Positions 4,185 through 62,624 of a stretch of DNA of 64,000 nucleotides are shown here, piece by piece (the stretch's first letter is position 1; every line of letters begins with the position of its first letter). Below the pieces are notes generated by a model. It saw nothing but the letters and a program-made list of their open reading frames with translations, had not been told where the DNA came from and did no database searches. Origin of the DNA: Planctomycetota bacterium (lineage in GTDB: Bacteria > Planctomycetota > UBA1135 > UBA2386). Location of the stretch: NCBI GenBank assembly GCA_965228735.1, contig OZ245838.1:6400001-6464000 (forward strand), in the 5' to 3' direction. The position numbers and the translations under genes were made by a program.

Positions 4185-4205
4185 GCCTGCGCTCGGGGTG
4201 TGGTC

Positions 4206-6933: not shown

Positions 6934-6939
6934 TCTCGG

Positions 6940-7302: not shown

Positions 7303-7398
7303 ACTTTCTTCTCCCGTTCCCCGGCCCGCCACCCCTTCAACCGTAAGCTTCGCGCGCGACCCGCTGGCGCATTGCGTGGGCCCGCCCGCGGCGGTCGG

Positions 7399-7815
7399 TC
7401 ACCCGCGGTAGCGCTCGAGGATGACGAGCGCGGCGATGCTGTCCGCGTGGTCCTTGCGGCGCTTGGCCTTCAGGCCGCCGGCCTTGAGCCGCGCGTGGGC
7501 TTCGTCCGTGCTGTGACTCTCGTCGACCGTGGTCAGCGGGCACGGCAGCGCCTTGCTGAGCACGTCGCGGAACGCGATCGTCCGCTGCGCCCGGTCGCCG
7601 ACACCGCCGTCGACCGTGAGCGGCATGCCGAGCACCACGAGTTCCGTCTCGCGCTCCTTCGCGAGCTCGGCGATGGCGCGAGCGAGTGCTGCGGGATCGC
7701 GTTCATCGATGCGCGGCAGCGGCAGGGCGATCGTGCCGGTCCAGTCGGTCGCGGCGAGGCCCGTGCGGCTGTCGCCGTAGTCCACGGCGAGGATGCGGCG
7801 CGGTCGGTCGGTCAC
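7399..7815 (-). CDS. ruvX: Holliday junction resolvase-like / pre-16S rRNA nuclease RuvX (YqgF)
   Basis: ILAVDYGDSRTGLA, VVLGMP, VDESHST and DSIAALVILE. The GTG start overlaps the manC stop (GTGA). Confidence 0.92.
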   Translation of the reverse strand: MTDRPRRILAVDYGDSRTGLAATDWTGTIALPLPRIDERDPAALARAIAELAKERETELVVLGMPLTVDGGVGDRAQRTIAFRDVLSKALPCPLTTVDESHSTDEAHARLKAGGLKAKRRKDHADSIAALVILERYRG

Positions 7816-8912
7816 AGCAGGTCGTCCCGGCCTTTGGCGCGGACGTGCTCGACGAACTTCTTGAGTTCGGCGGCGCGATCGCGCGGGCAGACGAGGACGG
7901 CGTCGCCAACGGCAACGACGACGAGGTCCCGGACGCCGAACAGGCAGACCGTGCGGTCGCCCTCGGCGAAGACGAGGTTGTCCTTGCTCTCGAGCGCGAG
8001 GTCCTGCGCGCCGTCGACGAGCAGCGCGTGATTGCCGTCGCCGCGATCGCTGCCGATGTCCGCGAGGGCAGCGAGGCCGCCGACATCGTTCCAGTCGATC
8101 GTCGCGCGCACGACCGCGATGGCCGGCGCGTTCTCCATCACCGCGTAGTCGATCGATGTCTTCGGTGCCGACCGGAATGCCGCGGCGAGCTCGTCGCCGG
8201 TTGCGCCGCCCCCCGAGAAGGCCGTCCGCATCGCTTCGGTTGCGGCGAGCAGCTCGGGGCTCGACTCCTGCATCGCGGCCATGATGCCCCGCGCGCTCCA
8301 GACGAAGATGCCGCTGTTCCACAGCATGCCCGCGGCGACGAACTGCTCCGCGGTCGCGCGGTCGGGCTTCTCGCGGAAACGTTCGGCGTGGAATGCGGCC
8401 GGCTCGCCGTCGTCGAGCTGCTGGCCGGGCTCGATGTAGCCGAACCCCGTCGCCGCGTGGGTGGGGGTGATGCCGAACGTGACGATCGTGCGGTCGTCGG
8501 CCGCGAGGTCGCGACCGCGGCGCACCATCGTGTGAAACGCGTCGGCCGGGCCGAGCACGTGGTCCGCCGGCATGACGACCATCGCGGCGTCGGGGTCCCG
8601 AGCCGCGACCGCGGCAGTCGCGAGCGCGATGCACGGCGCGGTGTCGCGCGCCTCGGGTTCGATGAGGATGCGTCCCTCCGGCAGGTCGGGCACCGCGCGG
8701 CGCACGGCGTCGAGCTGACCGGGGTTCGTCACGAGCCAGACGTTGTCGGGGTCGCAGAGTCCGTCGAGGCGGGCGAGCGTCGCGGCGAGCAGCGGCTGAC
8801 CGTGGGCGAGCGGCAGCACCTGCTTGGGGCGGGCTGCTCGACTCGCGGGCCAGAAGCGGGTGCCGGATCCTCCGGCCATGACGACGGCGTGCAGATTGCC
8901 GGTGGTTGGCAT
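7812..8912 (-). CDS. manC: mannose-1-phosphate guanylyltransferase (no PMI domain)
   Basis: VMAGGSGTRFWPASR..PKQ, EPEARDTAP, PADH, FREKP, WNSGIF, SIDYAVME and WNDVG. Confidence 0.93.
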   Translation of the reverse strand: MPTTGNLHAVVMAGGSGTRFWPASRAARPKQVLPLAHGQPLLAATLARLDGLCDPDNVWLVTNPGQLDAVRRAVPDLPEGRILIEPEARDTAPCIALATAAVAARDPDAAMVVMPADHVLGPADAFHTMVRRGRDLAADDRTIVTFGITPTHAATGFGYIEPGQQLDDGEPAAFHAERFREKPDRATAEQFVAAGMLWNSGIFVWSARGIMAAMQESSPELLAATEAMRTAFSGGGATGDELAAAFRSAPKTSIDYAVMENAPAIAVVRATIDWNDVGGLAALADIGSDRGDGNHALLVDGAQDLALESKDNLVFAEGDRTVCLFGVRDLVVVAVGDAVLVCPRDRAAELKKFVEHVRAKGRDDLL

Positions 8913-8916
8913 CCGG

Positions 8917-11900
8917 TTAGTAGTCGGGGGTCTCGGTACGGGGCATGATCGGCGGCAGCGGCGGTACTCGCGAACGGTCGGGTGCGCCCTGGCCGAAGAT
9001 GCGCTGCTCGGCCACCAGGTTGCGGAGGTGGCCGTAGAGGTGGAAGCTCACGAAGTTGCCCGCGAAGAACTCGACGAACGGCGTCACGAGCGGGTCCGCG
9101 CTGTTGCCGAGCAGGTTGGCCAGCTTGAGCTGGATGTCGACGTAGCCGTCGAGCCCGAGCGTGCCGTCGCCCTCCGCAGACAGCAGGTTGGATTTGACGA
9201 GCAGCCTCTCGAACGCGAGACGCTGTTCGCCGAGGCTCCAGGTCGCCTCGAGGTCGGTGAAGCGCGGGCGCTCCGGTGCGGGCATCTGCGCGTAGATCGC
9301 GGTGAAGAGCGGGACCGCGCCGAGGTCGCCGCGCTCGATCACGAGCGTGCCGTTGCCGACCGCATCTACGATGGCCTGGCCGTCGAGGCGGTCGATCCGC
9401 AGCGCGCCGCGCGCATCGCCGCGGTAGGGCGGTGACTCCCAGCCGGTCTTGCGCAAGAAGCTGTTCACATCGACGCCCTTGAAGTCCACGTCGACCTGCA
9501 ACCGCCCGTCCGGAGTCGCGGGGGCCGGCAGGGTGTAGACGAACGCCGGCGTCGCGGGGTTGCGCTGCCGGAACGTGCCCCCGTGCAACCTGGCGTCGAG
9601 GCCGTCGAGGACGAGCCGCTGGGAATCCGCCTGGAAGCGGCCCGAGAGCCCCTCGAACGGCTGGTCGACGAGTTGCAGCGAGGCGTTCGTCAACCGGCCG
9701 GCGAGGCCGCCGCCGCCGTCGCCGACCCGCGACTCGTCGAGCTTGACGTCGCCGTAGAGTCGGCGGACGCGCAGCCCGTCGCGGCCTTCGCCGAGCGTCA
9801 GCCCGACGTCCTGCAGGCGCAGTTCGCCGCTCAGCGTCGTCTCGAACGGCATCGAGCTCCCGGCGGGCGGCACGGCGAAGGCCAGCTTCAGCCGTTCGAT
9901 ACCGGCGCGGCCCGAGAGCCGACGGCCGGCGATCGACTGCCGCAACGGGCCGGCAAACAGTCGCGCGAGGTGCTCGTCGACGGGGAAGTCCGTCGCTTTG
10001 ACCGTGAACGCGACGAGCGTGCGGCCGTCGGGTTCGGGCGCTTCGGAGATCGTGCCGTCGAGCAGCTGCACGAGCTTGCCGCCGAGCTCGGCGCGGACCT
10101 CCTCGAACCCGATGCGCCCGTTGGCGACGTGCACCTCGCCCGTCATCTTGCGGGCCGGCCGCGGCAGGATGGCCGCGTCGGTGCCGACGTCGAGCAGGTG
10201 CACGACGATGTCGAGGTCCGCATCGTTCGCCGGCGTCACGCGATGCCGGCAGACGAGATCGACCGCGCCCGACGGCTGCAGGAAGTCCCAGGTCTCCTGC
10301 TCGAGCGCGCCGAGCGTCGCCAGCGCGTTGCCGAGTGCGTCGTCGAGCTCGAGGCCGCGCACGACGAGGGACAGGTCGCTGTCGGTCTGGTCGGTCGTGG
10401 CCGTGGCGTCCGCGGCCCGGCTCGCGCCCGGCTCGCGGTCCTTCTGGCTGTATTCGACGCGGCCGAGCATCGCGAGCTGTGCGGACGTCGCCGCGCCGTG
10501 GTCGAGCCGGCCGCGCAGCGCGTCGAAGTCGATGCGCATGGCCTCGCCCGAGCCGGTGATGAGGATGCGGCCGTTGAGGTCGCGGGCGAACCACGGGTCC
10601 ACCGCGAGCCGCAGTTCGACGTCCTCGACGTCGAGTCGGAGGTCGTAGTGAAAGCCGTCGAGGTCGGGCGCGATCGAAGATCCGGCCGCGGCGCTCGCGG
10701 GCTGCCACGCCCGCACGAAGCCGCTGCACCGGCCGCTCGGCGCCACGGCACCCCACGGCTTGTCGATGTCCGGCGCGAGTTTGCGCACGGCAACGCGCAG
10801 GTCCTCGTCGATCGCCAGGCCTTCGAGTTCGACCGCGACCTGGACGCCTTCGCGTTCGGTGCCCTCACTGTTGTTCGAGCCGGTCCCGTCGTTCTCGTAT
10901 TCGATCGGGAGCCGGCCGTGCAGCGTCACGCTGCCGTCGCCGTGGCGCCCGACGAGGTCGAACTCGGCCTTGCTGTAGTGCACGACGATGCTGCCGCGGA
11001 TGGCCGCGAGCTCGTACGGGAACTCCTGCCACAGCACCGCGGCGTCGCGCGGCGTGATCGTGACCGCGAACAGACCGTCGAGCTGCGACTCGGGCCGCAC
11101 GGCGACATCGACGTCCGCGTTCCCGCGCGGTCGCAGGCTGTCGTAGAGCGCACCGTCGTCGGTCAGCAGGTCGGCGAGCGCCGTGCGCAGCGCCGACGTG
11201 AAGCGTACGTTCTCGGCGCGGATGTCGAGGGTCGTGCTCTCCAGCGGCTCGACCACGGTGTTGATCCGGCCCGTCAGCGTGACATCGCCGCCGCCCGCGG
11301 ACTCCTTGATGCGCGCCGACATGTCGATGAGCTCGACGATGCCCTCGCGCAATCGCACCGTGCCCTGCGCGCCCTCGAGCGGCAGCGCGAATCCGATGCG
11401 GTGACCGCGCGTCTCGAACCCGCGGTAGGCGAGCTCGCCCTCGCGCACCTGCATGTCGAACTCGACCTTGCCGGTCGCGCGCTGCGGATCGCGGAGGAAG
11501 AACTCCATGTCGGCGCGGCCGGCGCGCGGCGCGAGCGCATCGACGATCTCGGCACCGAGGTCGAAGAGCCGCAGCGCGTCGAGCGTGTCGTCGTCGACCT
11601 GCAGGTTCTTGCCGGTCGCGCGCACCGTGTAGCTGAGTTCGTCCGCGCCGAGCGTCATGCCCGTCACGTCGACCGTGATGTCGATCGACCCGTCGGCCAG
11701 CGGCTGCTGGATCTGAGCGCGCAGCTCGCCGCCGTTCCTGCTGCTCCCCACGAAATCGATCGTCGCCGACTGCAGGTGGCGCGGCAGGCTCGCGGCCGCG
11801 AGGCGCGCCTGCTGGAGCTGGCCGCGGGCCTCGACCCTGGTCGTCATCGCGCCGCTCTCGTCCGGCGCGGTGCGGAACGTCAGCTCGAGTTGCCGCAGCG

Positions 11901-34388: not shown

Positions 34389-34418
34389 GCCAAATCAGGC
34401 CGGGCCAGATCAGGCCGG
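34389..34418. repeat. 15-bp tandem duplication containing the aceE-like stop codon
   Basis: gccaaatcaggccgg followed by gccagatcaggccgg (1 mismatch). Confidence 0.7.
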
Positions 34419-37229
34419 ATCCGGCCAGAGCTGGCGCCATTCGCCGCGGTCGCCGGGTGCGTCGACGCGGCCCTGCAGCATGCGCGCTGCCGCGGGATGC
34501 AGCTTCACGTTCTCGAGCGCCGTCTTGCTGAGCGCCTCGCCGCATGCGTCGGCGATGCCGGCCGGGTCGAGCCCGTGATACGCGTAGACCTGCTTGGGCG
34601 TGCCGGACTTGCTGAACTTGACGACCGCCTTGCTGACCTGCTGCACGCCGACGACCGAACCGAGGTTGTCGAGCAGGCCGATCTCGCCGTCGTGCACGGA
34701 CACGATCGGGACCCGCCGGCCGGCGAGGTCCACGGCGTCGCCCGCGCCGAGCCCGCCGTCGCTCCCGCCCGCCGGTCGCAGGTGCAGGTCGCCGCTGACG
34801 CCGAGGCGCTCCAGCAGGTGGGCGTGCCCGTTCTGCCTGCCGAGTTCGCCGCACAAGAGGTCGGGCGAAGTGACGACGGTGACGTTGGCGTAGACGCCGC
34901 GGTCGAGCAGCTGCTCGGCGGCACCGACGGCCTCGGGCACGAGCGCGCCCATGACGAACAGCTCGACGACGTTCTCGCCGGGCTGATAGCCGCGGTAGCC
35001 GCGCCAGTCGATCAGGCGGTAGCCGCCCGCGAGCGCGTCCTGCTGCAGCTGCGCCATGATCGTCGCATCATCCCGATGGGTGACCTCGGCCTCGTGCATG
35101 CCGCCGTCCTCGGCCGTGAGCCCGAGCTCGACGCCGTCGGGCAGGTCCGTCTTGTTGGCGGCCTGCTTGCGCAGCCACGACAGCAGCATCTTCTGGTCGA
35201 GCGCGCGTGTCACGGCGCGGATGAGCACGCCGCTGCGGCCTTCGTTGTCGCGCTCGAAGTGGCGGCGGATCGCGTCGCACAGGATCCACTCCATCTCGAT
35301 CGCGAACGCCGGCTCCCAGGTGATCAGGTTGGGGATCTGGATGTCGCTCTTCCAGCTGTGCTGCGCACCCTCGGGCGCGAGCGTCACACCGCTCGGCGTG
35401 CCGACGAGGACGAACGAGCTGCGCCAGTAGAGGTTGTAGTAGAGCTGGTCGAGCGCGCGTTTGATGAAGAAGTCGTAGACCGTCATCATCGGCAGGAACG
35501 GGATCCCGGCGACGTGATCCATCTTGCCGAAGCTGCCGAGCGCCGTCATGCAGTTGGCCTCGGCGATCTCGAAGCGGATGTGGCGTGTCCAGGCCTCGTC
35601 CGTCGGCGCGAGCTCGGGGCGCAGGCGCTCGTGCAGATCGAGCTTGTCCTCCCAGTTCTCGTCGTGCTTCGGCCCGAAGATCTTCTCGTCCATCGCCGGG
35701 TTGATGTTGGTCGACGTGCCGACGTCCGGCGCCATCGTCATCATCAGGTCGGCGAGCGGGTTCCAGCGCGCTTCCTCGGCGGTCGGGTTCTTGCCCGCCT
35801 TGTTCTCCTTGCCGGCCTTCGCGAGCTCGTCGTAGACGCCGATGCGCACGAGCTTGGCCGCGAGCTGACCCCACATCCACTGCGTGTGGGTCGTCGGCGC
35901 GAGCTTGAGGTTGATGTCGAGGCTCTCGGGCATGCCGCCCTGCTCCTCGATCTGCGCGACGACGCGCTGCCGGTTGGCCTCGGCCTGCGTCTCGAGCGCC
36001 TCGATGCCGAGCCGCATCGCGAGGCCGCGCTGGGTCGCGTACTTGCCTTCTTCGCTCTCCTGGTCGAAGCGCTGGAACGGGCGCTCCAGCGACAGGCCGT
36101 GCTCTTCGAGGATCGCCTCGACCTCCTTCTCGTCAGGCAGCGCGGAGTGGTTGCCGTTGGCCGCGACACACTCGAGGCCGCGCCCCTTGATCGTGTGGGC
36201 GACGATCAGCGTCGGCGTCTGCTTGTCCTTCTTGCTCTCCTCGAAGGCGTCGACGATCGCCGCGAGGTCGTGACCGCCGGTGTCGAAGAACAGCTCGACG
36301 ATCTCGTCGTCGGACAGCGACTCGACGAGCGCCTTGCAACCCTTGTCGGCCGCCACGGCCGCCTGTCGCATCAGGTCGGCGTCACGCTTCCAGATCAGCG
36401 CCTGGTAGTGGTAGTCGGTGAGCCCGTCCTCGAGCACCCGCTTGAGGGCAGCGCCGCCCTTCTTCTTGAACACCTTCTCCCGGAACGTGCCGTGGCGCAG
36501 CTGGATCACCTGCCAGCCGTTCGCGACCGCCGTGCCTTCGATGCGATCCGCGTCCGTGCCCTTGAGGCCGCGGTTGTTGGGGATGCGCGTGCCGTCGAGG
36601 TTCTGACGGTTGTAGTCGACGATCCACGTGACGTTGCCGAGCTCGCGCTCCGCGACCTCGGGCAGCACCTCGAGCAGCGAGCCCTCGCGGAACTCGCTGT
36701 CGCCCATCATGCACCAGAAGTGCGGCTCGTCGACGTCCCAGCCGTGCTGCCGCGCGTAGCGGTAGGCGAGCGACAGGTAGGCCGCCACCACCGGGGGGAT
36801 GCCCACCGAGCCCGACGGCAGGAAGCGCCAGCCGTCCGGGTCGGCCTCGGCGTGGTAGCTCTGGAACACCGCCTTGCCGTCGTGCGAGAACGAGCGCAGC
36901 CGGTGCATCACGGCTTCGGCCGCTTCGTCGTCGAACCAGTTGCCGTCCGGATGCCGGAACAGGCCCATCGCGTGGTTGAGCGCGTGGTCCGCGGGCGAGG
37001 CGTGCGGCTTGCAGCAGACGAAGTCGCCGGGCTCGCGCACGTGCAGGTGCAGCGCCGCGAGGAAGTCGAGGCTGCTCGCGCACGCGGCGGGGTGGCCGCC
37101 GACCTTGGGGTCGGTCTTGTCGGCGTCCTCGCGGTTGTTCGCGATGTGGATCATCGCGACCATGTGGGCGAACGCGCGCTTCGTGATGCGCTCGATCAGC
37201 GGGAAGTCGGGCTGGCTCGGGGACTTCAT
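34410..37229 (-). CDS. aceE: pyruvate (2-oxoacid) dehydrogenase E1, homodimeric AceE-like
   Basis: KVGGH..ACASS, KPHASP, QSYH, SGSVG, TPP motif GDSE...YNRQNLD, HTIKGRG, EIAEAN and SGVTLAPEGAQH. Confidence 0.82.
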   Translation of the reverse strand: MKSPSQPDFPLIERITKRAFAHMVAMIHIANNREDADKTDPKVGGHPAACASSLDFLAALHLHVREPGDFVCCKPHASPADHALNHAMGLFRHPDGNWFDDEAAEAVMHRLRSFSHDGKAVFQSYHAEADPDGWRFLPSGSVGIPPVVAAYLSLAYRYARQHGWDVDEPHFWCMMGDSEFREGSLLEVLPEVAERELGNVTWIVDYNRQNLDGTRIPNNRGLKGTDADRIEGTAVANGWQVIQLRHGTFREKVFKKKGGAALKRVLEDGLTDYHYQALIWKRDADLMRQAAVAADKGCKALVESLSDDEIVELFFDTGGHDLAAIVDAFEESKKDKQTPTLIVAHTIKGRGLECVAANGNHSALPDEKEVEAILEEHGLSLERPFQRFDQESEEGKYATQRGLAMRLGIEALETQAEANRQRVVAQIEEQGGMPESLDINLKLAPTTHTQWMWGQLAAKLVRIGVYDELAKAGKENKAGKNPTAEEARWNPLADLMMTMAPDVGTSTNINPAMDEKIFGPKHDENWEDKLDLHERLRPELAPTDEAWTRHIRFEIAEANCMTALGSFGKMDHVAGIPFLPMMTVYDFFIKRALDQLYYNLYWRSSFVLVGTPSGVTLAPEGAQHSWKSDIQIPNLITWEPAFAIEMEWILCDAIRRHFERDNEGRSGVLIRAVTRALDQKMLLSWLRKQAANKTDLPDGVELGLTAEDGGMHEAEVTHRDDATIMAQLQQDALAGGYRLIDWRGYRGYQPGENVVELFVMGALVPEAVGAAEQLLDRGVYANVTVVTSPDLLCGELGRQNGHAHLLERLGVSGDLHLRPAGGSDGGLGAGDAVDLAGRRVPIVSVHDGEIGLLDNLGSVVGVQQVSKAVVKFSKSGTPKQVYAYHGLDPAGIADACGEALSKTALENVKLHPAAARMLQGRVDAPGDRGEWRQLWPDPA

Positions 37230-37336
37230 GGGGCGAAACACGGTACGGGGAACCGGCGCCGCTCGCCACTCTCGGGGGGCTCTTGGAACGTTTTCCGGGA
37301 CTCCGGCCCGCTCCGCGACCGGGCCCCGGGCCCGGC

Positions 37337-37945
37337 CTATTCGTCGTCGTCGAATCCGGCGTTCTGCAGCGAGCGCTCGAGGTCGCGCGCGAGCCGATTG
37401 CGCGCGGCGCGGGCCAGGCCGGCCAGGAGGAATGGCGGCCACAGGAAGTGTACTGCCTGGACCATCTGAATGACCTGGTAGCGCACCCCCATGTGGTCGT
37501 GGGCGAGCGCGAAACGGGCCAGGACGAAGTACAGCGCGATGATGGCCACGCCGCCCAGTGCCGTGAGCCAGTGCCCGGCAGTGACCAGGCCGCTGCTCGT
37601 CTCCAGCTGGTAGGCGACCACCGTGCGGTCGTCGGTCGGCCGCGATCCGGCGCGCAGCGAGCCCGCGTGCCGCAACCTGCCGCCGCCGCCCTCCCAAACG
37701 AGCGCGTCGGGGTGCGATTCGAGGAGTGCGATTCGGCTCAGCGGCGAGCCGACGACGCCGCGTTGCAGGAGTGCTTTCGCACTCCGAACGATCGTCGCCG
37801 GCGCGGCGTCGACGACGACCTCGCCGGTCGACGGAACGCTCAGCCGGCGCGCCGAGGTCCATACGAACACGGTGCCCGCGAGCCAGAACACGGCGGCGAT
37901 CGCGGCGATCAGGTCGAGCAGGATCGCGGCGGATTCGAAGTCCAT
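37337..37945 (-). CDS. hypothetical membrane protein
   Basis: Three hydrophobic segments, coding-like codon usage and TATGCT 8 nt before the ATG. Confidence 0.7.
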   Translation of the reverse strand: MDFESAAILLDLIAAIAAVFWLAGTVFVWTSARRLSVPSTGEVVVDAAPATIVRSAKALLQRGVVGSPLSRIALLESHPDALVWEGGGGRLRHAGSLRAGSRPTDDRTVVAYQLETSSGLVTAGHWLTALGGVAIIALYFVLARFALAHDHMGVRYQVIQMVQAVHFLWPPFLLAGLARAARNRLARDLERSLQNAGFDDDE

Positions 37946-38031
37946 GGCAGCGCAGCATACTCAGTGACCGCGATCATGGCAGTCTGCCCGGAGCGGTGAC
38001 CGTCGCGGCGCGGCTTCGTAGAAGCCCCCCG

Positions 38032-42355: not shown

Positions 42356-43558
42356 ATGGCCGCGGTTCCGTCTCACCTGCTCGCATCCGGTCGCTGGCGC
42401 GTGCTGCTGTTCTGCTGGCTCGGTTGGGTCTTCGACTTCTATGACCTGATCCTGTTCGCGTTCACCAAGCGCACGATCGGAGCCGAGCTCGGTCTCGATG
42501 CGATGGCGGTCGGCTGGGTCGAGGGTTGGTCGCTGCTCGCGACGGCGATCGGCGCGCTCTGCGCGGGGCGGATCGCGGATCGGGTCGGACGGCGGCAGGG
42601 CATGGTGTTCTCGATCGTGCTGTTCTCGCTCGGGGCGCTGCTGACCGGCGCGGCGAGCGGGTTCTGGTCGCTGTTCGTCGCGCGCTTCGTCACGGGGCTC
42701 GGTGTCGGCGGCGAATGGGGGATCGGGCACGCGGTCGTCGCGGAGCACTGGGCGGGCAGGGACCGGGATCGCGTGCACGGCATCTTGCAGGCCGGCAGCC
42801 CGGTCGCGATGGCGGGCGCGGCGGCCGTCGGTTGCTTCCTCGCGCCGTTGCCCGAGGTCGGCTGGCGCGCCGTGTTCTACGGCTCGGCCGGGTTGGCCGT
42901 GCTCGCGTTCGCCGCGCGGTGGGCGATGCCCGGGCCGGACCGCGCCGTCGAACGCGCTGCACCGATGCCGGTCATGGCGTTGTTCCGGGCGCCGCACCTG
43001 CGCGTCAGTCTCGCTCTGCTCGCGGTGCTGTCGCTGCACATGGCCGGGTTCTGGTGCGTCTACGCCGAGATCCCCGCCGCGCTCATGCAGCAGCACCGCG
43101 TGCCCGTGCAGGAGGTCGGCTGGTATCAGATCAAGGTCAACGCGGTGCACGTCTTGGCCGACGTCGCGTTCGGGTTCCTCGCGGCGCGCCTCGGTCGCAT
43201 CCGCGTGTTCGTCGCGTTCTGCCTCGTGTTCGCGGCAGGCCACTGGCTCGTGCTGCAGTCGCTCGGCGCGATCGCTGCCGACTTCTCGACGTTCACCGTC
43301 GTCATCGCCGCGATGGGGCTCGGTGCCGGCACGTGGTCGTGCTTCGGCGCGCTGTTCGGTGAACACTACCCCGTGGCGCTGCGCGCGACGGCCGCGGCGC
43401 TGTTCTACGCCCTCGCGCGCTCCGTGCAGTTGCCGCTCAAGCCGGCGATCGGCACGGCGATCGAATCGCACGGGCTCGCGCCCGCTTTGTGGGTGGGCAT
43501 CGCCTGCGCGCTGTTGTCTGCAGTTGCGGTGCTGCTACTGCCCCGGCGCGGGGTCTGA
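42356..43558 (+). CDS. MFS transporter (sialate/carboxylate:H+ symporter-like)
   Basis: WLGWVFDFYD, GRIADRVGRR, RFVTGLGVGGEW and EHYPVALRATA. Start at 42356 (alternative 42344). Confidence 0.9.
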   Translation: MAAVPSHLLASGRWRVLLFCWLGWVFDFYDLILFAFTKRTIGAELGLDAMAVGWVEGWSLLATAIGALCAGRIADRVGRRQGMVFSIVLFSLGALLTGAASGFWSLFVARFVTGLGVGGEWGIGHAVVAEHWAGRDRDRVHGILQAGSPVAMAGAAAVGCFLAPLPEVGWRAVFYGSAGLAVLAFAARWAMPGPDRAVERAAPMPVMALFRAPHLRVSLALLAVLSLHMAGFWCVYAEIPAALMQQHRVPVQEVGWYQIKVNAVHVLADVAFGFLAARLGRIRVFVAFCLVFAAGHWLVLQSLGAIAADFSTFTVVIAAMGLGAGTWSCFGALFGEHYPVALRATAAALFYALARSVQLPLKPAIGTAIESHGLAPALWVGIACALLSAVAVLLLPRRGV

Positions 43559-44752
43559 GGCTTCCTCGGCCTCTCGGTCGCGGAAGAGCAGCACGAACAA
43601 CACGAGAATCGCGAGGGCGCCGATGCACGGCCAAAACCAGATCGTCGCCCAGTCGGTCGCCGCCTCGGTCTTGTTGTTCTCGACGAGGCGGAACATGATC
43701 TGCGCGCCGAGGAACATGCCGAGTCCCTGCGTGATCCACACGAGCAGACTCTGCGCCTGACCGCGGATCTGCGCCCGCGCCTTGCGGTCGACGTAGATCT
43801 GACCCGTCACGAAGAAGAAGTCGTAGCAGATGCCGTGGAGCAGGATGCCAGAGAGCACCATCCACGCGATCGGTGTCTCGCCCGCACCGCCCGACCACAG
43901 GCCGTAGCGCAGCACCCACGCCGCCATGCCGACGGCGAGCATCCACTTCACGCCGAGCCGCGCGAAGAACAAGGGCATCACGAGCATGAAGCCGACCTCG
44001 GCCCATTGGCCGAACGTCATGTAGAAGCCGGGTTCTTCCCAGACGGTGCCCGCGAACTGGTTGCCGTAGCTGTAGTAGCCCGCGAGCGGGATGCAGATCA
44101 GGAACGAACACAGGAGGAAGACGACGAACGCCGGTTGCTTGAAGAGCTCGAGTGCACCCAGACCGAGGGTCTCACTCAGCGAGACCTGTTTGCCGGCCGC
44201 TGGCGGCGGGGTATGGGGAAGCAGGAAGCACAGGACGCCCATCGCGATCGAGCTGTAGCCGGCGACGGAGAACATCACGGCGTCCGTGTCGGCGCCGAGT
44301 CCCTTGCTGACCAACGTGACCGCGGCGATCCAACCGAGCGTGCCGAAGACTCGCGCGAGCGGGAACTGCTTCTCGGGGTTGTCGATGTGCGCGAACGCGA
44401 CCGTATTCGTCAGGCCGAGCGTCGGCATGTAGCACAGCATGTAGGCGAAGATCAGCCACTCGAACTGCGCTGCGTCGCCGGCAGCCGTGACGCTGGGTAC
44501 GTAGAACATGATGCCGCCGCCGATGAGATGCATCGCGGCCAGCACGATCTGCGACGGGAAGTAGCGGTCCGCGATCAGTCCGAGGAAGAGCGGCGAGATC
44601 ATCGCGGCGATCGGGCCGGCGGAGTAGACCCAGCCGGTCGTCGCGTCGGTCCACCCGAGCTCCGGAACCAAAGTCCCGGCCGTCACGTACCAGCTCCCCC
44701 AGACGAAGAACTGCAGGAACATCATCGCGCAGAGCAGCGGGAACTTCGGCAT
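43535..44752 (-). CDS. nucleoside:H+ symporter (NupG/XapB family MFS)
   Basis: MMFLQFFVWGSW, GLIADRYF, YMPTLGLTN, RVFGTLGWI and LHGICYDFFFVTGQIYVD. Confidence 0.92.
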   Translation of the reverse strand: MPKFPLLCAMMFLQFFVWGSWYVTAGTLVPELGWTDATTGWVYSAGPIAAMISPLFLGLIADRYFPSQIVLAAMHLIGGGIMFYVPSVTAAGDAAQFEWLIFAYMLCYMPTLGLTNTVAFAHIDNPEKQFPLARVFGTLGWIAAVTLVSKGLGADTDAVMFSVAGYSSIAMGVLCFLLPHTPPPAAGKQVSLSETLGLGALELFKQPAFVVFLLCSFLICIPLAGYYSYGNQFAGTVWEEPGFYMTFGQWAEVGFMLVMPLFFARLGVKWMLAVGMAAWVLRYGLWSGGAGETPIAWMVLSGILLHGICYDFFFVTGQIYVDRKARAQIRGQAQSLLVWITQGLGMFLGAQIMFRLVENNKTEAATDWATIWFWPCIGALAILVLFVLLFRDREAEEASDPAPGQ

Positions 44753-44795: not shown

Positions 44796-46613
44796 TTACG
44801 CGTTCGCCGTCGAATCCGCCGGCTCGACGCGGGTGTCGATCGGGCGGTCGCGGCGCGAGAGGCGCAGGGTGAAACGCGCGCCGCCGCCGTCGCGATCCTG
44901 GTAGTCGATCGTGCCGCCGTGCGCGAGGGCGACCTCCATGGCGATGCGCAGACCGATGCCGATGCCCTGCGGCTTGTCGACGAGCACGTCGCCGCCCTGG
45001 GTGAACTCCTCGAAGATGCGGCTCTGGTCGGCCTCCGGGATGCCCGGGCCGCGATCGAGGATCTCGATCGCGACATCGTCCTCGGCCGGTGTGACACGGA
45101 TCTCGACGACGCCGTCCTTCGGGCTCCATTGCCACGCGTTGTGCAACACGTGGTAGATGGCGTCGGTCACGCGCTCCCGGTCGGCGCTCAGGTGGACGGC
45201 GGCGGCCTCGAGCCGCCACTCGATCGGTTTGAGCTGCAACACTCCGGCGAGGCGCGACCGCGCGTTGCGGCAGAGCTCGACGACGTCGACGTTGCTCACC
45301 GTCCACTCCGTGCGGTCGCTCGCGAGGCTCGCATACTCGAGCGCGTCGCTGATGCGCGTGCCGAGCCGTGCGGCCTGTTCGAGGATCGTGCCGAGGAACT
45401 CGGTGCGGTCTTCCGACGAGGCGCTGTCGCCGAACTCCTGCAGCATCTCGGCGGACGTCTGGATGCCCGTGAGCGGGGTGCGTAGCTCGTGGCTGATCGA
45501 CATCAGGAAGCCGTCCTTGGCGCGGTTGGCCGCTTCCGCGCGCACTGCCTTGTCCGCGGCCTCATCGAACAGTCTCTGCATCGTCGTCGCCATCGTGTTG
45601 AACGACTCGCCGAGACGGCCGACCTCGTCCTGGCTGTCGATCTTCACGCGGGCGCCGAGGTCACCCATCGCCAGCTGCTTGTTCGCCAGCACGAGTCGCC
45701 GCAGCGGCTGGCTCAACCGCCGCGCCGTGCGCGACGCGAACCACAGGCCGAAGAGCGTGACGATCGCACCGAGCGCGAGCAGGTAGAGGATCGCTTCGTC
45801 GCGCAGTTGCACGATCGCATCGACGTCGTGCGGCAAGAACGTGATGATGCCTTCGTTCGTGAGCCGGATCGCGAGTCCGGGCCGCGATTGGCCGTCCACC
45901 TCGATGCTCGCCGTCCGCCCGGCCGGCGGCAGATCGCCGTGCCGGAGCGTCGCGAGCTCGTCGATCAGAAGATCCGTTGGGCTGTGTCTGAGCCAGACCT
46001 GACCCGCGAGCCGGCCCTCGTGCATGAGCACGAGGTCGTTGCCGATGCCGCTGCCGAGCGTGCCGGCGAACGCGTCGTCGACCGGGATGCCGCGAACGAG
46101 CACCGCGGCGACCGCGTCGTCGGCAACGATCGGCGCGAGGCCGGCAAACATCAACGTGGCGCCGTCGTGCCATAGGTGAACACTCGGGGTCCCCGTCAGC
46201 GCGGCTTCGACGCCCGGCCAGTTCGACATGTCCGCTGCGATCGCGAACGACGCGTTGCGACGGCCACGGACCTGCCCCTTGTCGTCGAGCACGACGAGCG
46301 CCTGGTCGGGTCCGCCATCACTCTGGATCGCGTCGAAGCCGTCCTCGAGCGTTGCCTGGTCGACCCCTTCGATGCTGGCGAGGGCCGTGAGCAGCGGTGT
46401 CTGCGCGAGGAAGTCGGTCTCTTCGCGCAGGTCGACGCGGAGGCGTTCGATCGCGCGGCCGAGGTTGCGGTGCCCTTCGGCGACGCTGTTGTCGACCTCG
46501 CGGGCGGCGAAGTCGTTGATGCGGCCCACGAACACGGCAGCCGCGACCGCGACGAAGCCCGCGATGAGCGTCGTCGTTCCGAGGACCAGGCGGCCGCGCA
46601 GATCGAGCTGCAT
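44796..46613 (-). CDS. membrane sensor histidine kinase (Cache-like periplasmic domain, HAMP, HisKA, HATPase)
   Basis: Two TM helices, HAMP (DEVGRLGESFNTM), SHELRTPL, DRGPGI and GIGIGL. Confidence 0.92.
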   Translation of the reverse strand: MQLDLRGRLVLGTTTLIAGFVAVAAAVFVGRINDFAAREVDNSVAEGHRNLGRAIERLRVDLREETDFLAQTPLLTALASIEGVDQATLEDGFDAIQSDGGPDQALVVLDDKGQVRGRRNASFAIAADMSNWPGVEAALTGTPSVHLWHDGATLMFAGLAPIVADDAVAAVLVRGIPVDDAFAGTLGSGIGNDLVLMHEGRLAGQVWLRHSPTDLLIDELATLRHGDLPPAGRTASIEVDGQSRPGLAIRLTNEGIITFLPHDVDAIVQLRDEAILYLLALGAIVTLFGLWFASRTARRLSQPLRRLVLANKQLAMGDLGARVKIDSQDEVGRLGESFNTMATTMQRLFDEAADKAVRAEAANRAKDGFLMSISHELRTPLTGIQTSAEMLQEFGDSASSEDRTEFLGTILEQAARLGTRISDALEYASLASDRTEWTVSNVDVVELCRNARSRLAGVLQLKPIEWRLEAAAVHLSADRERVTDAIYHVLHNAWQWSPKDGVVEIRVTPAEDDVAIEILDRGPGIPEADQSRIFEEFTQGGDVLVDKPQGIGIGLRIAMEVALAHGGTIDYQDRDGGGARFTLRLSRRDRPIDTRVEPADSTANA

Positions 46614-46614
46614 C

Positions 46615-47595
46615 TCAGTACTTCTTGCGGTAGCGCTTGCCGTGCTTGTTGGTGTGCTGCACGCGCGCTCGGGTCTCCCGGACGGTGAGCGGCACTACCT
46701 GCGCGATCCCGTCATGGACTTCGATCGTCGTCGGCGGTGGCATGCCGAGCGCATGCCAGACGCGGAGCCGATAGCGCCCGTCCGGGACGTCCGGAATGGC
46801 CCAGTAGCCGCGCTCGTCGGTCACCGTGGCGCGGTCGTTCTCGAGAACGAGCACGCTGGCCGACATCTGCGGGTGGATGTTGCAGTGCACCTTGACGAGA
46901 CCGGCCCGGTCCATCGCGACCTCCTTCGACCTGCCCTTGCCGTAGGTGCCGAGGTCGAACGCCTTGGTCTTGGACTTGCTGAAGACGTTGTGGAACACCA
47001 CGTCGTCGTTGGGGAAGCGCACGACGGTGCCGCGCGTCACCGTGAGCACGCGCGGCGCGAACTGGCGGCCCTGCTGGGAGATAACCGGCTTGCGGGCGGC
47101 GGGGGGCGACGGCGGCAGCGCGTCACCTTCGAGGAACACCACGACGCCGCCGCGATCCTCGTGGGCAGCGCCGTCGCGCGCGAGCAACTCGATGCGACCG
47201 TGCAGCGCGTTGCCCCGGTTGGGGAACAGGCCGCGGGCGGCGTTGTCGTCGCGGACCTCGAGATGACAGCTCGTGCAGGCCCGCCGCAGCAGCGCGAAGT
47301 CGTGCCGCCGCAGCGCGGCATCGGGCGCGCTCCCGAGCGCGCGAGCGCGGTCCCTCACAGCCGTGAGCCAGCGCGTCCCGCCCGGGCCGAACCGAGCCGC
47401 GCCGGCCAGCCCGCTCGCCGTGTCCACGATCTTCGCCGTCGCCGCGGGGTTCGTCGTGTCGCGGTCGAGCGCGCGCTCGAGCTCCTGCACGGCCGTCGCG
47501 AACGCCTGCATCGCCGCCGTGGTCGACGGCGCCTCCTGCGCGCTCGCGGCGCCGGCCACGCCGAGCAGCGCCATTGCGCGCGCGAACGCCCGCAT
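46615..47595 (-). CDS. periplasmic fusion of a class II cytochrome c-like domain and a cupredoxin (MauL-like) domain
   Basis: Signal peptide, a helical ~95-aa domain ending in CTSCH (47263-47277), then FPNDDVVFHNVFS...CNIHPQM (46864-46884) and GRYRLRVWH. Confidence 0.82.
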   Translation of the reverse strand: MRAFARAMALLGVAGAASAQEAPSTTAAMQAFATAVQELERALDRDTTNPAATAKIVDTASGLAGAARFGPGGTRWLTAVRDRARALGSAPDAALRRHDFALLRRACTSCHLEVRDDNAARGLFPNRGNALHGRIELLARDGAAHEDRGGVVVFLEGDALPPSPPAARKPVISQQGRQFAPRVLTVTRGTVVRFPNDDVVFHNVFSKSKTKAFDLGTYGKGRSKEVAMDRAGLVKVHCNIHPQMSASVLVLENDRATVTDERGYWAIPDVPDGRYRLRVWHALGMPPPTTIEVHDGIAQVVPLTVRETRARVQHTNKHGKRYRKKY

Positions 47596-47597
47596 CG

Positions 47598-48860
47598 TCA
47601 GAACGCCAGGACCAGTTCGGCGGCAACGAACTTCCGCGTGTCGTCCGCGAGGCCGCTGAGGTCGGTCGCGCGCGCGTGGTCGAAGCCGACCTCGAACTTG
47701 CCGAGCAGGCCGGGCGCGAACGTCCGGACGACGCCCGCGGATACGCGTTCGGCCTGCATGAGATCGAACCCGTAGCTCGCCATGCCGTTGAAGTAGGGCT
47801 GGCCCTCGAACTGGTAGCCCTCCTGCGAATCGAACGTGCTCACGCCGCTGTAGCGCAGCGCCACCGTCCAGTCCTCGTTGAGCACGACGGACGGCTCGAC
47901 GATCCAGAACCCGAACTCGCGGTCGAACTGGTCACCGATGTCGTTGATCTGGCAGCCGCCGAGCTGCCACTGCAGCTGGAAGCTCTCCGATGGTTGCCAG
48001 ATGCCGTCGAACGCGCCGACGAGCGCATCGATGTCGGTGCTCGGGCTGGCGCCGCCCGCGCCGCCGCCGACCGGCGTCAGCACATTGCCGCCGAAGCACA
48101 GGGCCGTCGCCGGAGTGTTCTGCACCCAGTGGCAGCTCGCGCTGAGGTACAGCGACTCGCAGGGCTCGGCCCAGAGCTTGCCGGTCAGCGCCGGTGAGAT
48201 GCCCGTGCTCGACTGCCGGTCGTAGGTGCCTTCGGTGAACGAGAACACCCAGCCGCAGTCCCCGAGGTCCTCGAAGAGCTGGATGCCTTCGTCCCAACGA
48301 TAGGTCGTGGGCAACGGGATGCTGACGAGCCGGTTCCGCGGCGCGTCCTCGAGGAAGTAGTACTCCCCGAACGGCAGGTTGAAGCGTCCGGCCTTGAGGC
48401 CGACAGCGCCGTCGCCGTTCTCGTCGCCGAAGCCGAACGGATCGTGGAGCTGCAGATAGACCTCGTTCACGCCGACGCCGTTGGCGTCGTTGTCACGGAA
48501 CCAGTCCCACTCGACCTCGACGACGACCGTGCCGGTGTCGCGCAGTTCGGCCTGGAAGAACATCAGCGCCTGCTGCACACCGAGCGCACCATCGGGGTAG
48601 TTGCCGGTGTCGTCCGTCTGCATGTAGCGCGACGCGAGGAAGCCGTAGACCTCGAAGCGCTCGAACCAGCGGTCGAGGCCCTGCTGGACCTGACCCGCGG
48701 CTTCGCCCATGTCCGCGAACGACTCGTCGGAGAGGTCGATGCCGCCGTCGGTCGGCGGGTCCTGCGCCAGCGCCGGCGCGGCGAGAAGCAGGACGGGAAC
48801 GAGCGCTCGCAGCGCACCGAAGCGGCTCGCGCATCCGCGGAAGGGAGTAGGGGGAACCAT
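47598..48860 (-). CDS. outer-membrane beta-barrel (porin-like)
   Basis: Signal peptide ending ALAQ, alternating aromatic strands, NEVYLQ..LKAGRFNLPFGE and C-terminal ELVLAF with terminal Phe. Confidence 0.8.
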   Translation of the reverse strand: MVPPTPFRGCASRFGALRALVPVLLLAAPALAQDPPTDGGIDLSDESFADMGEAAGQVQQGLDRWFERFEVYGFLASRYMQTDDTGNYPDGALGVQQALMFFQAELRDTGTVVVEVEWDWFRDNDANGVGVNEVYLQLHDPFGFGDENGDGAVGLKAGRFNLPFGEYYFLEDAPRNRLVSIPLPTTYRWDEGIQLFEDLGDCGWVFSFTEGTYDRQSSTGISPALTGKLWAEPCESLYLSASCHWVQNTPATALCFGGNVLTPVGGGAGGASPSTDIDALVGAFDGIWQPSESFQLQWQLGGCQINDIGDQFDREFGFWIVEPSVVLNEDWTVALRYSGVSTFDSQEGYQFEGQPYFNGMASYGFDLMQAERVSAGVVRTFAPGLLGKFEVGFDHARATDLSGLADDTRKFVAAELVLAF

Positions 48861-48992: not shown

Positions 48993-50072
48993 CTAGCCGC
49001 CGTAGTAGCGACCGAAGCGGTTCTTGAGGAACGCCTCGTAGTCGACGCTCTCCATCCGCAGGAAGCCGCTCTCCGGCAGCTTGCCGTCGCGCAGCAGGTC
49101 GACGATGCCCGTGACGCCGGCCGCGGTCGTGATCTGGATGCCGCTCCAGTTCTCGCCGTCGATCTCCTGGTGGTAGATCGTCTTGGCGTAGGTCCGTTCG
49201 GTGAGCCGCCCCTTGTACTGCCCGGTCGCGCTCACGTAGATCACGATCTGATCCTGGAACGTGGCCGGCAGCGCGCGCTCGAAGATCGCGCGCAGTTCGT
49301 CCTGGTGGTCCTGCATCTGCAGGTCGAGCAGCAGCAGCTTGAGCAGCTCGCAGTGGCCGGGGTAGCGGATCGTCTTGTAGTTGACGTTCTTCACCCGGTC
49401 CTTGAGCGTGATCGCGAGCGTGCCGAGGCCGCCCGACGTGTTGAACGCCTCGTACTCGACGCCGTCGATCGTCAGCCTTTCGAGCTGCTCGAGCGGTGGC
49501 ACGGTCGTCAGCTCACCGTTCTCGACGGATTCGCACGGATTGCAGTACTCGTTGATCAACCCCTCCGTGCTCCACGTGAGGTTGTACTTCAGGCGGTTGC
49601 TCGGGAACCGCGGCAGCGCACCGACGCGCAGGTTGAGGTCCGTGACCTCGGTCATCGACTTCATCAGGTGGTTGGCCACGATCGTGATGAAGCCCGGCGC
49701 GAGGCCGCACTGCGGGGCGAACAGCGTGTTGGCGCCGTCGGCGAGGTCCTTGACCTGCTGCGTGACCGCGACGTCTTCCGTGAGGTCGAAGTAGTGGACA
49801 CCGTTTTCTTTCGCGCGCTGCGCGATCAGCGGGTTGCAGTGGTACGGCGCGCAGCTGATCACGGCCCAGGCGCCGTCGAGGATCGCGTCGAGGCTCTCGG
49901 CACTCTCGAAGTCGACCACCTGACCCGTGACGTTGTCGTACTTGTCGTTGAGGAACGACACGGCCGGCTCGGCCACGTCGCCGACGCGGACGCGGTAGTC
50001 GCCCGACTTGGCCATGAGGTGACAGACCATGCGGCCGATCTTGCCGGCGCCGAGGATGACGAGTTCGTGCAT
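48993..50072 (-). CDS. saccharopine dehydrogenase family / lysine 6-dehydrogenase
   Basis: LGAGKIG, HYFDLTEDV, PQCGLAPGF, YNLTWSTEGLINEY, AFNTSGG and YKTIRYPGH. Confidence 0.9.
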   Translation of the reverse strand: MHELVILGAGKIGRMVCHLMAKSGDYRVRVGDVAEPAVSFLNDKYDNVTGQVVDFESAESLDAILDGAWAVISCAPYHCNPLIAQRAKENGVHYFDLTEDVAVTQQVKDLADGANTLFAPQCGLAPGFITIVANHLMKSMTEVTDLNLRVGALPRFPSNRLKYNLTWSTEGLINEYCNPCESVENGELTTVPPLEQLERLTIDGVEYEAFNTSGGLGTLAITLKDRVKNVNYKTIRYPGHCELLKLLLLDLQMQDHQDELRAIFERALPATFQDQIVIYVSATGQYKGRLTERTYAKTIYHQEIDGENWSGIQITTAAGVTGIVDLLRDGKLPESGFLRMESVDYEAFLKNRFGRYYGG

Positions 50073-60977: not shown

Positions 60978-62624
60978 CTACGGGATGACGAGGCGCATCG
61001 CGTCCGACGAGATCACCAGGTTGGCGGCCGTCGGATCGAGGGCGACCCACTGGATCCAGTACGTGCCCGGGGCGGCTTGTGACGGCGGCACATGAAAGAT
61101 GTGACTGTTGTATCCGCTGCCGTCGGGCGAAGTCTTCGTCGCGCCCAGCGGCAACGCGAGCAACGCGGGGCTGACGCCGAGGTGGACCTGCATCCCGAGG
61201 TAGAGGCTCGGCGCCGGCGACCCGACGAGGTCGACCATCAGTGCCGTGAACAGGCCCGGCGCGATCCGGTCGACGCCGACGCCGAACGTGTCGTTGCCGT
61301 GATACACGGTGCCGAGCGCCGAGATCCTCGGAGGGCGCGGGGTGTGCGGTGCCGTGCCGACGCCGAACGCCGTCGGCACGCGGACACTCTCGATCCAGAG
61401 TCGGGGGCGGTCGAACGGCGGCAGCTCGCTGGCCACGCGCGGGTCGGTCAGGCTGTGAAGCAGCGCCAGCAGCGCCGCGCGGCGGCGCGGGGTCAGCTGG
61501 CCGCGGATCGCGTCGACGAGGGGGTCCCGGTTGTCGGCGTGATCGCCACCCCGATCGTAGAACGCGAGCACGTCCGCCAGGGAGCTGCCGCTGCCGTCAT
61601 GGAACCACGTGCTGCGCAGCGCCACGTTCCGCAGGTCCGGCACCCGGAACTTGCCGCGATCCGCTGTGGCGCCCGTCACCTGCGCGCGCCCGAGATCCGT
61701 AGCCGGTGGTCGCACGCCGGTGTTGCGGAAGTCCTCGTGCACGGGGCCCGTAGCGAGAACCGCCGCGCTCAGGCCCGTGTGGCAATCGGCGCAGAACCGC
61801 TCGAAGACGGTCAGGCCGTGGCGCGCGAGCGGCGAAAGCGTGCCCTGTCCGGCGAGGTAGCGATCGAACGGCGATCCGTCGCTCACGAGCGTGCGTTGAT
61901 ACGCGGCGAGCGCGAACGCGATCCGGGTCGGCGTGATCTCGGGTGTGCCGAACGCGCGGGCGAACAATGCCGGGTACCGTCGGCCGCCGATCCAGCTCTG
62001 CATCGCGGGCGGCACGCGTTCCGCGACCGCGAGGGGGACGAGGCGCTCGATCAGCGTGGTGACGTCGCGCCAGTCGCGATCGACGTGCGCCATCTCCGCC
62101 GTGCTGAGCAGCGGCTCGAGGGCTTGATGTTCGAGAGCCGCATTCGCGGTCAGCACGATGTCGCCCGTCCTCGGGTCGCGGAACACACCGTCGGCGCGCC
62201 CGTCGACGAAGACAGACGGTTGGTAGGCGGAGTTCACGAGCGGTGGCGCGCGACGGTGCGAGACCTGCCACTGCACGCCGAACGTGGCGTTCGCGATCAT
62301 CAAGCCGCTGCTGTCATGCAGCGGGACGCCGGGTGAGCCGCGGCCGTCGTCGGCCGTCCCGAATACACCGTCGGCCCCCGGATGCACGCTGCTCGGTGCC
62401 CGAGGATCCGTGCCGTCCCGGCCCGGCACGTGGCACGTGCCGCACGCGATCGCGTTCGAGGACGCGAGCTGTTCGTCGTAGAACAGCGCCTTGCCGAGCA
62501 GGACCTTGTCGGGCGTGGTGGGGTTTCCCGCGGGCGTCGGCGGAGTCGGCCAGATCGACTGGGCTCGCACAGCGGCGAGCGCGACCAGGAGCACTGCCAG
62601 GAATACGTATGCGAACTGACGCAT
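60978..62624 (-). CDS. diheme cytochrome c peroxidase / MauG superfamily protein with C-terminal beta domain
   Basis: LGKALFYD, CGTCH, FVDGRA, CADCH, FRVPDLRNV, FHDG and VLAFY. Confidence 0.88.
   Translation of the reverse strand: MRQFAYVFLAVLLVALAAVRAQSIWPTPPTPAGNPTTPDKVLLGKALFYDEQLASSNAIACGTCHVPGRDGTDPRAPSSVHPGADGVFGTADDGRGSPGVPLHDSSGLMIANATFGVQWQVSHRRAPPLVNSAYQPSVFVDGRADGVFRDPRTGDIVLTANAALEHQALEPLLSTAEMAHVDRDWRDVTTLIERLVPLAVAERVPPAMQSWIGGRRYPALFARAFGTPEITPTRIAFALAAYQRTLVSDGSPFDRYLAGQGTLSPLARHGLTVFERFCADCHTGLSAAVLATGPVHEDFRNTGVRPPATDLGRAQVTGATADRGKFRVPDLRNVALRSTWFHDGSGSSLADVLAFYDRGGDHADNRDPLVDAIRGQLTPRRRAALLALLHSLTDPRVASELPPFDRPRLWIESVRVPTAFGVGTAPHTPRPPRISALGTVYHGNDTFGVGVDRIAPGLFTALMVDLVGSPAPSLYLGMQVHLGVSPALLALPLGATKTSPDGSGYNSHIFHVPPSQAAPGTYWIQWVALDPTAANLVISSDAMRLVIP

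Follow-up and report, generated by a model that had tools for sequence, protein, structure and literature searches.

A tandem porin, haem-copper protein and sensor kinase as a candidate envelope redox-sensing unit of Planctomycetota

Why would a bacterium encode a porin, a secreted protein that combines a haem-c motif with a blue-copper site, and a membrane histidine kinase back to back? This question is raised by three minus-strand genes in a stretch of 64,000 nucleotides (nt) from a Planctomycetota bacterium (GenBank assembly GCA_965228735.1, contig OZ245838.1, positions 6,400,001 to 6,464,000; the whole stretch is hereafter called the window), whose products we designate P0001, P0002 and P0003. 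Our computational analysis favors the reading that the metalloprotein P0002 is a periplasmic redox co-sensor whose state the kinase reads by accessory-protein coupling, a proposal that we consider evenly poised between right and wrong. The trio is arranged as follows.

47598..48860, minus strand: porin gene P0001 (420 amino acids [aa]; outer membrane, predicted)
46615..47595, minus strand: haem-c/blue-copper protein gene P0002 (326 aa, secreted; span includes the stop codon)
44796..46613, minus strand: sensor histidine kinase gene P0003 (605 aa; span includes the stop codon)

All three genes are real. Their open reading frames (ORFs) have a third-position guanine-cytosine (GC) content, GC3, of 0.90-0.93 in a window of ~69% GC, indicative of a strong coding bias, and homologues over the full length, at 45-55% identity, exist for P0001, P0002 and P0003. 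The junction between P0001 and P0002 reads TGA-cg-ATG (2 nt) and that between P0002 and P0003 reads TGA-g-ATG (1 nt), in agreement with an initial annotation of the window that had described three minus-strand genes 2 bp and 1 bp apart. The genome, a single contig of 7.19 Mb, has one copy each of the porin family, the copper protein and the sensor outer domain, and none outside this locus.

Conservation of the trio and of the sensor input domain

For our locus set, we took two peptide patterns (i.e., DD[VT]VFHNVF and FDL) from the P0002 alignment and scanned a single genome of each species, which retrieved 80 loci. Among the 19 best of these (L002-L020), 17 carry the porin, copper-protein and sensor genes in the same order and on the same strand with near-zero spacing, and these trio loci belong to Planctomycetota, Latescibacterota and one Gammaproteobacterium (L020). 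The gene-neighborhood check that the initial annotation had proposed thus came out in favor of co-conservation, in several taxa. The two exceptions are L015, in which a contig edge follows the copper-protein gene, and L017, which has a porin-copper pair with kinases on both sides. More specifically, the trio is kept at L014 (38% identity), at L016 and L019 (both Latescibacterota) and at L020 (43% GC), amid flanking genes unrelated to those of the window. Strong matches to the porin profile were obtained in L002-L021, L026, L027 and L042, and weak ones after an HD-GYP gene in four Acidobacteriota loci; no porin was found in the Myxococcota loci of the set. At L021, an Omnitrophota metagenome-assembled genome, positions 3972-10746 hold two successive porin-copper pairs and then one dCache-like kinase, the second porin being weakly BBP2-like. 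At L016 (5618-6951), the porin is split into overlapping ORFs (5618-6394 and 6283-6951), owing to a frameshift or an assembly error.

The absence of a response regulator from the window, also part of the initial description, was borne out, as none of the 60 genome matches to the receiver domain PF00072 falls inside 6400001-6464000. Likewise, none of the 39 flanking ORFs scanned around the close loci L002-L013 and L018 matched Response_reg.

The kinase P0003 has two transmembrane segments that flank an outer domain of ~245 residues and are followed by the HAMP, HisKA and HATPase_c domains.

45792..46523, minus strand: extracytoplasmic sensor domain, residues 31-274, dCache_3-like at the family level
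45576..45728, minus strand: HAMP domain, residues 296-346 (Pfam, 50.3 bits, above the cut-off)
44853..45518, minus strand: HisKA (residues 366-430) and HATPase_c (residues 478-587) domains (58.7 and 76.6 bits, respectively, above the cut-offs)

The H-box SHELRTPL, with its phospho-acceptor His, is readable in the P0003 translation. Among 29 aligned relatives of the outer domain, 16 matched PF14827 (dCache_3) and 15 matched CHASE4; P0003's own outer domain gave no Pfam match at E <= 0.01, and a profile of the domain compared with PDB sequences gave weak CodY/GAF matches only. The Cache-like/HAMP kinase proposed earlier therefore stands as regards HAMP, HisKA and HATPase_c, and its Cache-like part holds at the level of the family.

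A sensor profile was built from the outer domains of 14 trio sensors and iterated for three rounds, and a gene was counted as adjacent if its start falls in the interval from -100 to 600 nt past the copper-protein gene. By this measure, the sensor outer domain directly follows the copper-protein gene at 47 of the 80 loci with the first profile and at 55 of the 80 with the iterated one, and at several further loci the domain lies within 1-3 kb or on the opposite strand. The output attached to it varies, as assigned from Pfam matches.

Plain kinase: the Planctomycetota clade, L016, L021, L027, L047, L058 and L062
Hybrid kinase: L014 and L020
GGDEF + HD_5 (HD-GYP): 27 loci, mostly Armatimonadota
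GGDEF + EAL: L044
HD_5 alone: L025, L037, L059 and L060
HD_5 + PilZ: L028
Guanylate_cyc (nucleotide cyclase): L026, L030 and L081

The hybrid kinase at L014 carries receiver domains, and that at L020 carries a receiver and an Hpt domain, the next gene there encoding a REC-PAS-GGDEF-EAL protein. In 11 Myxococcota loci, a Ser/Thr kinase adjoins the copper-protein gene. Input modules typically show this pattern of a constant outer domain, swappable outputs and a faithful secreted neighbor, which argues for the copper protein being on the sensing side rather than among the regulated targets. Consistently, in the reverse direction, the sensor domain was detected at E <= 1e-8 in 11 of 201 sampled Planctomycetota genomes, and in seven of these 11 (i.e., G000, G157, G030, G067, G119, G020 and G116) a copper-protein gene lies beside or near it. 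Our data thus agree with the modular system that the initial annotation had suggested: the outer domain is constant, and both the cytoplasmic output and the haem module are variable.

This pattern bears on an alternative that we consider fairly unlikely, namely that P0002 simply carries electrons in the periplasm for an oxidoreductase and that P0003 is a neighboring regulator, maybe of the operon, that does not read P0002. A role as local regulator is hard to square with the data because one outer domain is kept even with outputs, such as GGDEF/HD-GYP proteins and cyclases, that have no action on a neighbor's transcription. Moreover, no oxidoreductase gene adjoins the trio in the window, and the same holds for the close loci scanned.

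Metal centers of P0002 and the nature of the signal

P0002 carries a Sec-type signal peptide, and its AF2 model (pLDDT 88.8, pTM 0.85) comprises three domains. Residue conservation refers to an alignment of 20 homologues.

47221..47532, minus strand: cytochrome b562-type four-helix bundle, residues 22-125, with an invariant M29 in helix 1
47263..47277, minus strand: CxxCH haem-c attachment motif CTSCH, residues 107-111 (C107, C110, H111), at the end of helix 4
46843..47097, minus strand: type-1 cupredoxin domain, residues 167-251 (ligands H202, C238, H241, M244)
46669..46833, minus strand: transthyretin-like CarboxypepD_reg sandwich, main part residues 255-309, to which strands 129-150 add
46618..46662, minus strand: basic C-terminal tail, residues 312-326, with H314, K317, G319, Y322 and Y326 invariant or nearly so in the alignment

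The CxxCH/cupredoxin fusion noticed at the outset is thus present with all its ligands, and both sets of residues, the haem-attaching C107, C110 and H111 and the copper ligands H202, C238, H241 and M244 (His ... Cys-x2-His-x2-Met), are invariant in 20/20 sequences. Helices 25-44, 50-65, 67-88 and 93-114 form the bundle in the model. A bundle-domain profile from 16 loci aligned with cytochrome b562 (3tol_A, E 3.8e-4) over the full length. In this alignment, Met29, invariant in 16/16 sequences, pairs with the Met at position 7 of b562, and the His of CxxCH pairs with His102; we take these two b562 residues to be its axial haem ligands. The CxxCH likewise aligns with that of c-type b562 variants, and a gene for cytochrome c assembly (Cytochrom_C_asm) exists in the genome. 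As the bundle gave no Pfam Cytochrom_C_2 or b562 match at E <= 0.1, the kinship rests on the profile-to-PDB match and on the fold. Because the invariant Met29 aligns with the axial-Met position of b562, we infer that the haem of P0002 is six-coordinate (Met/His) and of the electron-transfer type, with no open gas-binding site predicted.

This prediction bears on a gas-sensing role, an option named in the initial annotation, in which NO, O2 or CO would enter through the porin and bind the P0002 haem, whose ligand state would be read by the kinase. Structural comparison lends this role some support: the best match of the bundle is 6r6n_A, the small cytochrome c of Kuenenia Kusta0087/0088 (Z 10.7, root-mean-square deviation [rmsd] 1.6, 101 aligned; VIA-align), and cytochromes c' (Z 7.4-7.9) match as well, as do b562 fusion proteins (Z 7.5-8.0), although for helical bundles a Z below ~13 may mean a shared arrangement only. 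The Kusta0087/0088 complex is described as a nitric-oxide-binding cytochrome c complex (PMC11897245). Similarly, a truncated globin (Bac_globin) takes the place of the cytochrome at the N-terminus of the copper protein in 4/4 scanned Myxococcota (L035, L054, L066 and L067). In contrast, the position of Met29 leaves no free site in the predicted haem and favors redox over gas, and small gases need no porin to cross membranes. Furthermore, many sensor-linked relatives have no haem domain (L019-L021, L026 and Armatimonadota), so the haem is not the core of the signal. Gas sensing thus appears highly improbable to us. Across the set, the CxxCH bundle was found in 17 related loci, with the CxxCH at a fixed distance from the C-terminus, and the globin in Myxococcota; L019-L021, L026, L027, L030, L042, L081 and Armatimonadota have neither. 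The four Myxococcota loci with a scanned globin show a recurring combination of a Ser/Thr kinase, the truncated-globin/cupredoxin fusion and a CCP_MauG-like dihaem protein.

The cupredoxin domain matches plastocyanin (7zqe_M; Z 12.4, rmsd 1.5, 83 residues) and amicyanin (1aac; Z 11.6), and Foldseek returned amicyanin and NirK (E about 4e-7, probability 1.00). In Pfam, P0002 reaches 18.5 bits for Copper-bind, below the cut-off of 21.2, and its relatives L026 and L027 reach 29.6 and 26.1 bits, respectively. The ligand set is present in 81/81 family members, of which C238, H241 and M244 lie outside the search patterns and H202 falls within one, so that its presence in 81/81 is by construction. 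With both metal centers apparently of the electron-transfer type, the signal is therefore most likely redox state, not a bound gas. The same features would suit the electron-carrier alternative: the haem looks like a Met/His electron-transfer haem, and the type-1 copper ligand set is typical of electron carriers.

A further alternative is a copper-status or homeostasis module, in which the cupredoxin would report its apo versus holo state or handle copper admitted by the porin, and the kinase would answer copper (compare Cop/Pco and Cus). The layout of barrel, periplasmic copper protein and kinase resembles that of copABCD-copRS, and the fold matches of the cupredoxin include chaperones and iron-uptake partners (CupA 4f2e, Z 8.9; FtrB 8vuk, Z 9.6; EfeO 7wgu, Z 10.1). 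However, we find this alternative improbable because of the following features: (i) the ligands make up a classic buried His2-Cys-Met electron-transfer site, not a chaperone site; (ii) no multicopper oxidase, CopB/PcoB barrel, CopC/CopD, P-type ATPase or adjacent response regulator was found in the trio or its neighbors; (iii) the best NCBIfam kinase matches of P0003 are generic, and the heavy-metal sensor model gives 94.2 bits against a cut-off of 292.55; and (iv) the cytochrome and globin fusions point towards redox chemistry.

The remaining domain of P0002 scored 25.8 bits for CarboxypepD_reg (cut-off 32.3) over residues 244-299, and the sandwich matches the carboxypeptidase D domains 1qmu and 5aq0 (Z 8.2). 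In the ESM Atlas, the cluster nearest to P0002 comes from Planctomycetota (0.94), the others being Copper-bind/fn3_3 clusters at 0.79. When proteins of 572-2000 aa were searched with P0002 residues 150-326, no fused form came up, which is weak evidence.

The porin, a possible mechanism and the wider family

The AF2 model of P0001 (15 homologues; pLDDT 78.8) is a 16-stranded beta-barrel that ends in a C-terminal Phe (...LVLAF), and Foldseek matched it with chitoporin (5mdq, E 1.3e-12), Omp32, and OprP (2o4v) and OprO (4rjw) at TMq 0.61. By its predicted fold, P0001 is thus a general or specific 16-stranded porin, consistent with the outer-membrane beta-barrel of the initial annotation. Neither Pfam (0 families at E <= 0.1) nor NCBIfam gave a match for P0001, and among 15 relatives the sole Pfam matches were one weak BBP2 and one weak Porin_4. 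The association with a DUF3034 porin named in the initial annotation consequently finds no counterpart here, and the MauL-like label of the cupredoxin fares no better, as none of the NCBIfam models, MauL included, matched P0002; part of that context was recovered, however, in that some relatives of the cupredoxin are fused to a truncated globin or accompanied by a GGDEF sensor. We set aside an MtrCAB-like porin-cytochrome conduit because the barrel is modeled with only 16 strands and would be too narrow for a 300-residue protein.

Following its signal peptide, P0001 has a conserved acidic N-terminal extension of ~40 residues that is modeled with low confidence. The extension (residues 24-62) has conserved positions (L43 invariant, W65 nearly so), and contrasts in charge with the basic tail of P0002. 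The basic tail occurs in 20 loci, and a strong porin match in 20/20 of them, a count that is no statistical test since the loci are kin to one another; L027 and L042 have a porin but no basic tail on the copper protein. The copper proteins of Myxococcota end in PDKFG, which resembles the NK[FH]G of porin-linked tails.

The co-sensor reading would work as follows. The Met/His haem and the blue copper would exchange electrons with an oxidant or reductant that is periplasmic or admitted by the porin, through which a ligand or electrons might pass. Oxidized and reduced P0002 would bind the outer domain of the kinase differently and thereby set its autophosphorylation, and the kinase would pass the signal to a response regulator whose gene lies at another genomic site. 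P0002 may be docked by its sandwich domain or its basic tail, perhaps onto the acidic N-terminal extension of the porin, and the haem domains could serve as optional antennae that broaden the range of redox partners. Such contact between P0002 and the kinase is proposed here from gene-neighborhood evidence.

Several observations weigh against this co-sensor reading. First, a saccharopine dehydrogenase gene (48993-50072, same strand, 132 nt upstream of the trio) and a nucleoside:H+ symporter gene (43535-44740, downstream) flank the trio in the window, and both flanks are common to the close Planctomycetota loci L003, L006, L007, L010-L013 and L018 and absent from distant loci; as these flanks are also shared, the synteny of the close loci is partly inherited. 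Second, four genomes among the 11 that encode the sensor domain (G144 contig 13, G013, G072 and G179) have no copper-protein gene near it, three of these four being among the four weakest sensor-domain matches of the eleven. Third, the C-terminal domains of the Ser/Thr kinases are matched by the iterated profile and not at all by the first one, the link being otherwise one of adjacency; because the iterated profile alone matches, their homology to the sensor outer domain is tentative. Fourth, type-1 copper proteins barely change shape with redox state, so that it is less easy to see how a partner could read that state.

The wider cupredoxin/sandwich family adds to these points. It is matched at E <= 1e-10 in 75 of 201 Planctomycetota genomes, often in multiple copies. 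We drew an independent sample of 20 places from a protein search, two of which (L082 and L083) repeat L012 and L017, leaving 18 other Planctomycetota loci. Among these 18, a sensor follows the copper-protein gene in only two (a cyclase at L086 and a hybrid kinase at L094), four adjoin molybdopterin oxidoreductase genes (L089-L092), two are fused to Urate_ox_N (L096 and L099) and one lies beside CCP_MauG (L098); at L084, a porin-like gene follows the copper-protein gene. Because most distant paralogues are sensor-free and several lie by molybdopterin oxidoreductases, the wider family looks like ordinary periplasmic electron carriers. The electron-carrier alternative draws on these same paralogues, and also on a CCP_MauG gene that lies ~12 kb off in the window. 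The sensor link is thus a trait of one sub-family, which carries DD[VT]VFHNVF and FDL, and our 80 loci sample that sub-family, because both patterns come from this clade.

Some members of this wider sample deserve description in their own right. The paralogues at L089-L093 (genomes G132, G151, G062, G087 and G032, of 3-4.4 Mb with 3-5 family copies each) are ~240-260 aa long, end in ...KRRR and directly follow large ORFs (900-1150 aa); all four such ORFs that were scanned (L089-L092) match Molybdopterin oxidoreductase, the neighbor at L093 is of the same size, and a GcpE gene is near L090-L092, i.e., in 3/3 loci scanned for it. This setting suggests that the paralogues are blue-copper carriers belonging to a cluster of the nitrite/nitrate-oxidoreductase type. 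At L096 (3388-6495) and L099 (5923-7887), in two Planctomycetota genomes, a membrane protein of the Urate_ox_N family (PF06181) carries the cupredoxin/CarboxypepD_reg module as a C-terminal fusion. At L086 (6476-9508), a 1010-aa frame holds a sensor domain, HAMP and Guanylate_cyc, and its residues 671-991 match the porin profile; the frame is either a true fusion or two genes read through.

Elsewhere in the window, the CCP_MauG gene (60978-62624, minus strand) belongs to a dihaem cytochrome c peroxidase family that also adjoins globin-fused relatives of Myxococcota, and a 1182-aa ORF (34410-37958, minus strand) has Transketolase_N over 70 residues as its sole Pfam match. A promoter and terminator scan was uninformative, with 0 promoter-like and 3 terminator-like sites (1.8 expected).

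Extending the co-sensor reading beyond this locus, we tentatively put forward, with more doubt than belief, a widespread modular redox receptor that would span the envelope: a blue-copper co-receptor tethered to a dedicated porin via its basic tail, exchangeable haem antennae (of the cytochrome b562 type or a truncated globin) and one dCache-like input, which at least seven phyla would have wired to outputs as different as kinases, c-di-GMP enzymes, nucleotide cyclases and Ser/Thr kinases. If true, periplasmic or environmental redox would be coupled to phosphorelays, c-di-GMP and cyclic-nucleotide signaling in many uncultured diderm lineages, including Planctomycetota, Latescibacterota, Armatimonadota, Acidobacteriota and Myxococcota, and diderms would have a general route for reporting extracellular or periplasmic redox state to the cytoplasm. 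It would also give a function to many proteins labeled "hypothetical" or "plastocyanin", to a porin family that has no model, and to a dCache_3-like sub-family without a known ligand.

Comparison with known systems

Reading the state of a separate periplasmic protein is a known mode of sensing, though few such sensors are understood. In LuxP-LuxQ and TorT-TorS, a double PAS/Cache-like domain of the kinase reads a periplasmic partner encoded by a neighboring gene and does not bind the signal directly. The partners LuxP and TorT are solute-binding proteins for small molecules, whereas the partner here is a redox protein with two metal centers. In the titles and abstracts that we searched on cupredoxins, MauL, truncated hemoglobin fusions and dCache_3 accessory proteins, we found no account of the trio, nor any sensor of this protein-reading kind with a blue-copper or haem-c reporter.

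The closest proposed logic is that of HbpS-SenS-SenR of Streptomyces, in which a secreted haem-related accessory protein is reported to be the sensory part of a redox pathway with a kinase (PMC4991794, PMC3754957). Both systems pair a secreted redox accessory protein with a membrane histidine kinase. However, HbpS is octameric, is unrelated to cupredoxins or cytochrome b562 and has neither covalent haem nor a copper site; the system has no outer-membrane partner and co-encodes its cognate response regulator, whereas the trio has no regulator nearby. Similarly, YfiBNR of Pseudomonas aeruginosa is reported to consist of outer-membrane, periplasmic and inner-membrane HAMP receptor parts, the periplasmic part controlling the receptor (PMC4655355, PMC4887326). 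The trio, like YfiBNR, has one component per envelope layer. In contrast, YfiB is a lipoprotein and not a porin, YfiR has no metal cofactor, and the output is a diguanylate cyclase rather than a kinase, although relatives of the trio also use GGDEF outputs.

The trio belongs to none of HbpS-SenS-SenR, YfiBNR or LuxPQ/TorTS, because all of its components are unrelated to theirs. At the level of single domains, P0002 agrees in its folds and metal-ligand sets with cytochrome b562 and class II cytochromes c on the one hand and with the amicyanin/plastocyanin cupredoxins on the other. The b562 and amicyanin-type proteins, however, are single-domain carriers, whereas P0002 fuses both folds with a sandwich and a basic tail, and its gene is linked to those of a porin and a sensor.

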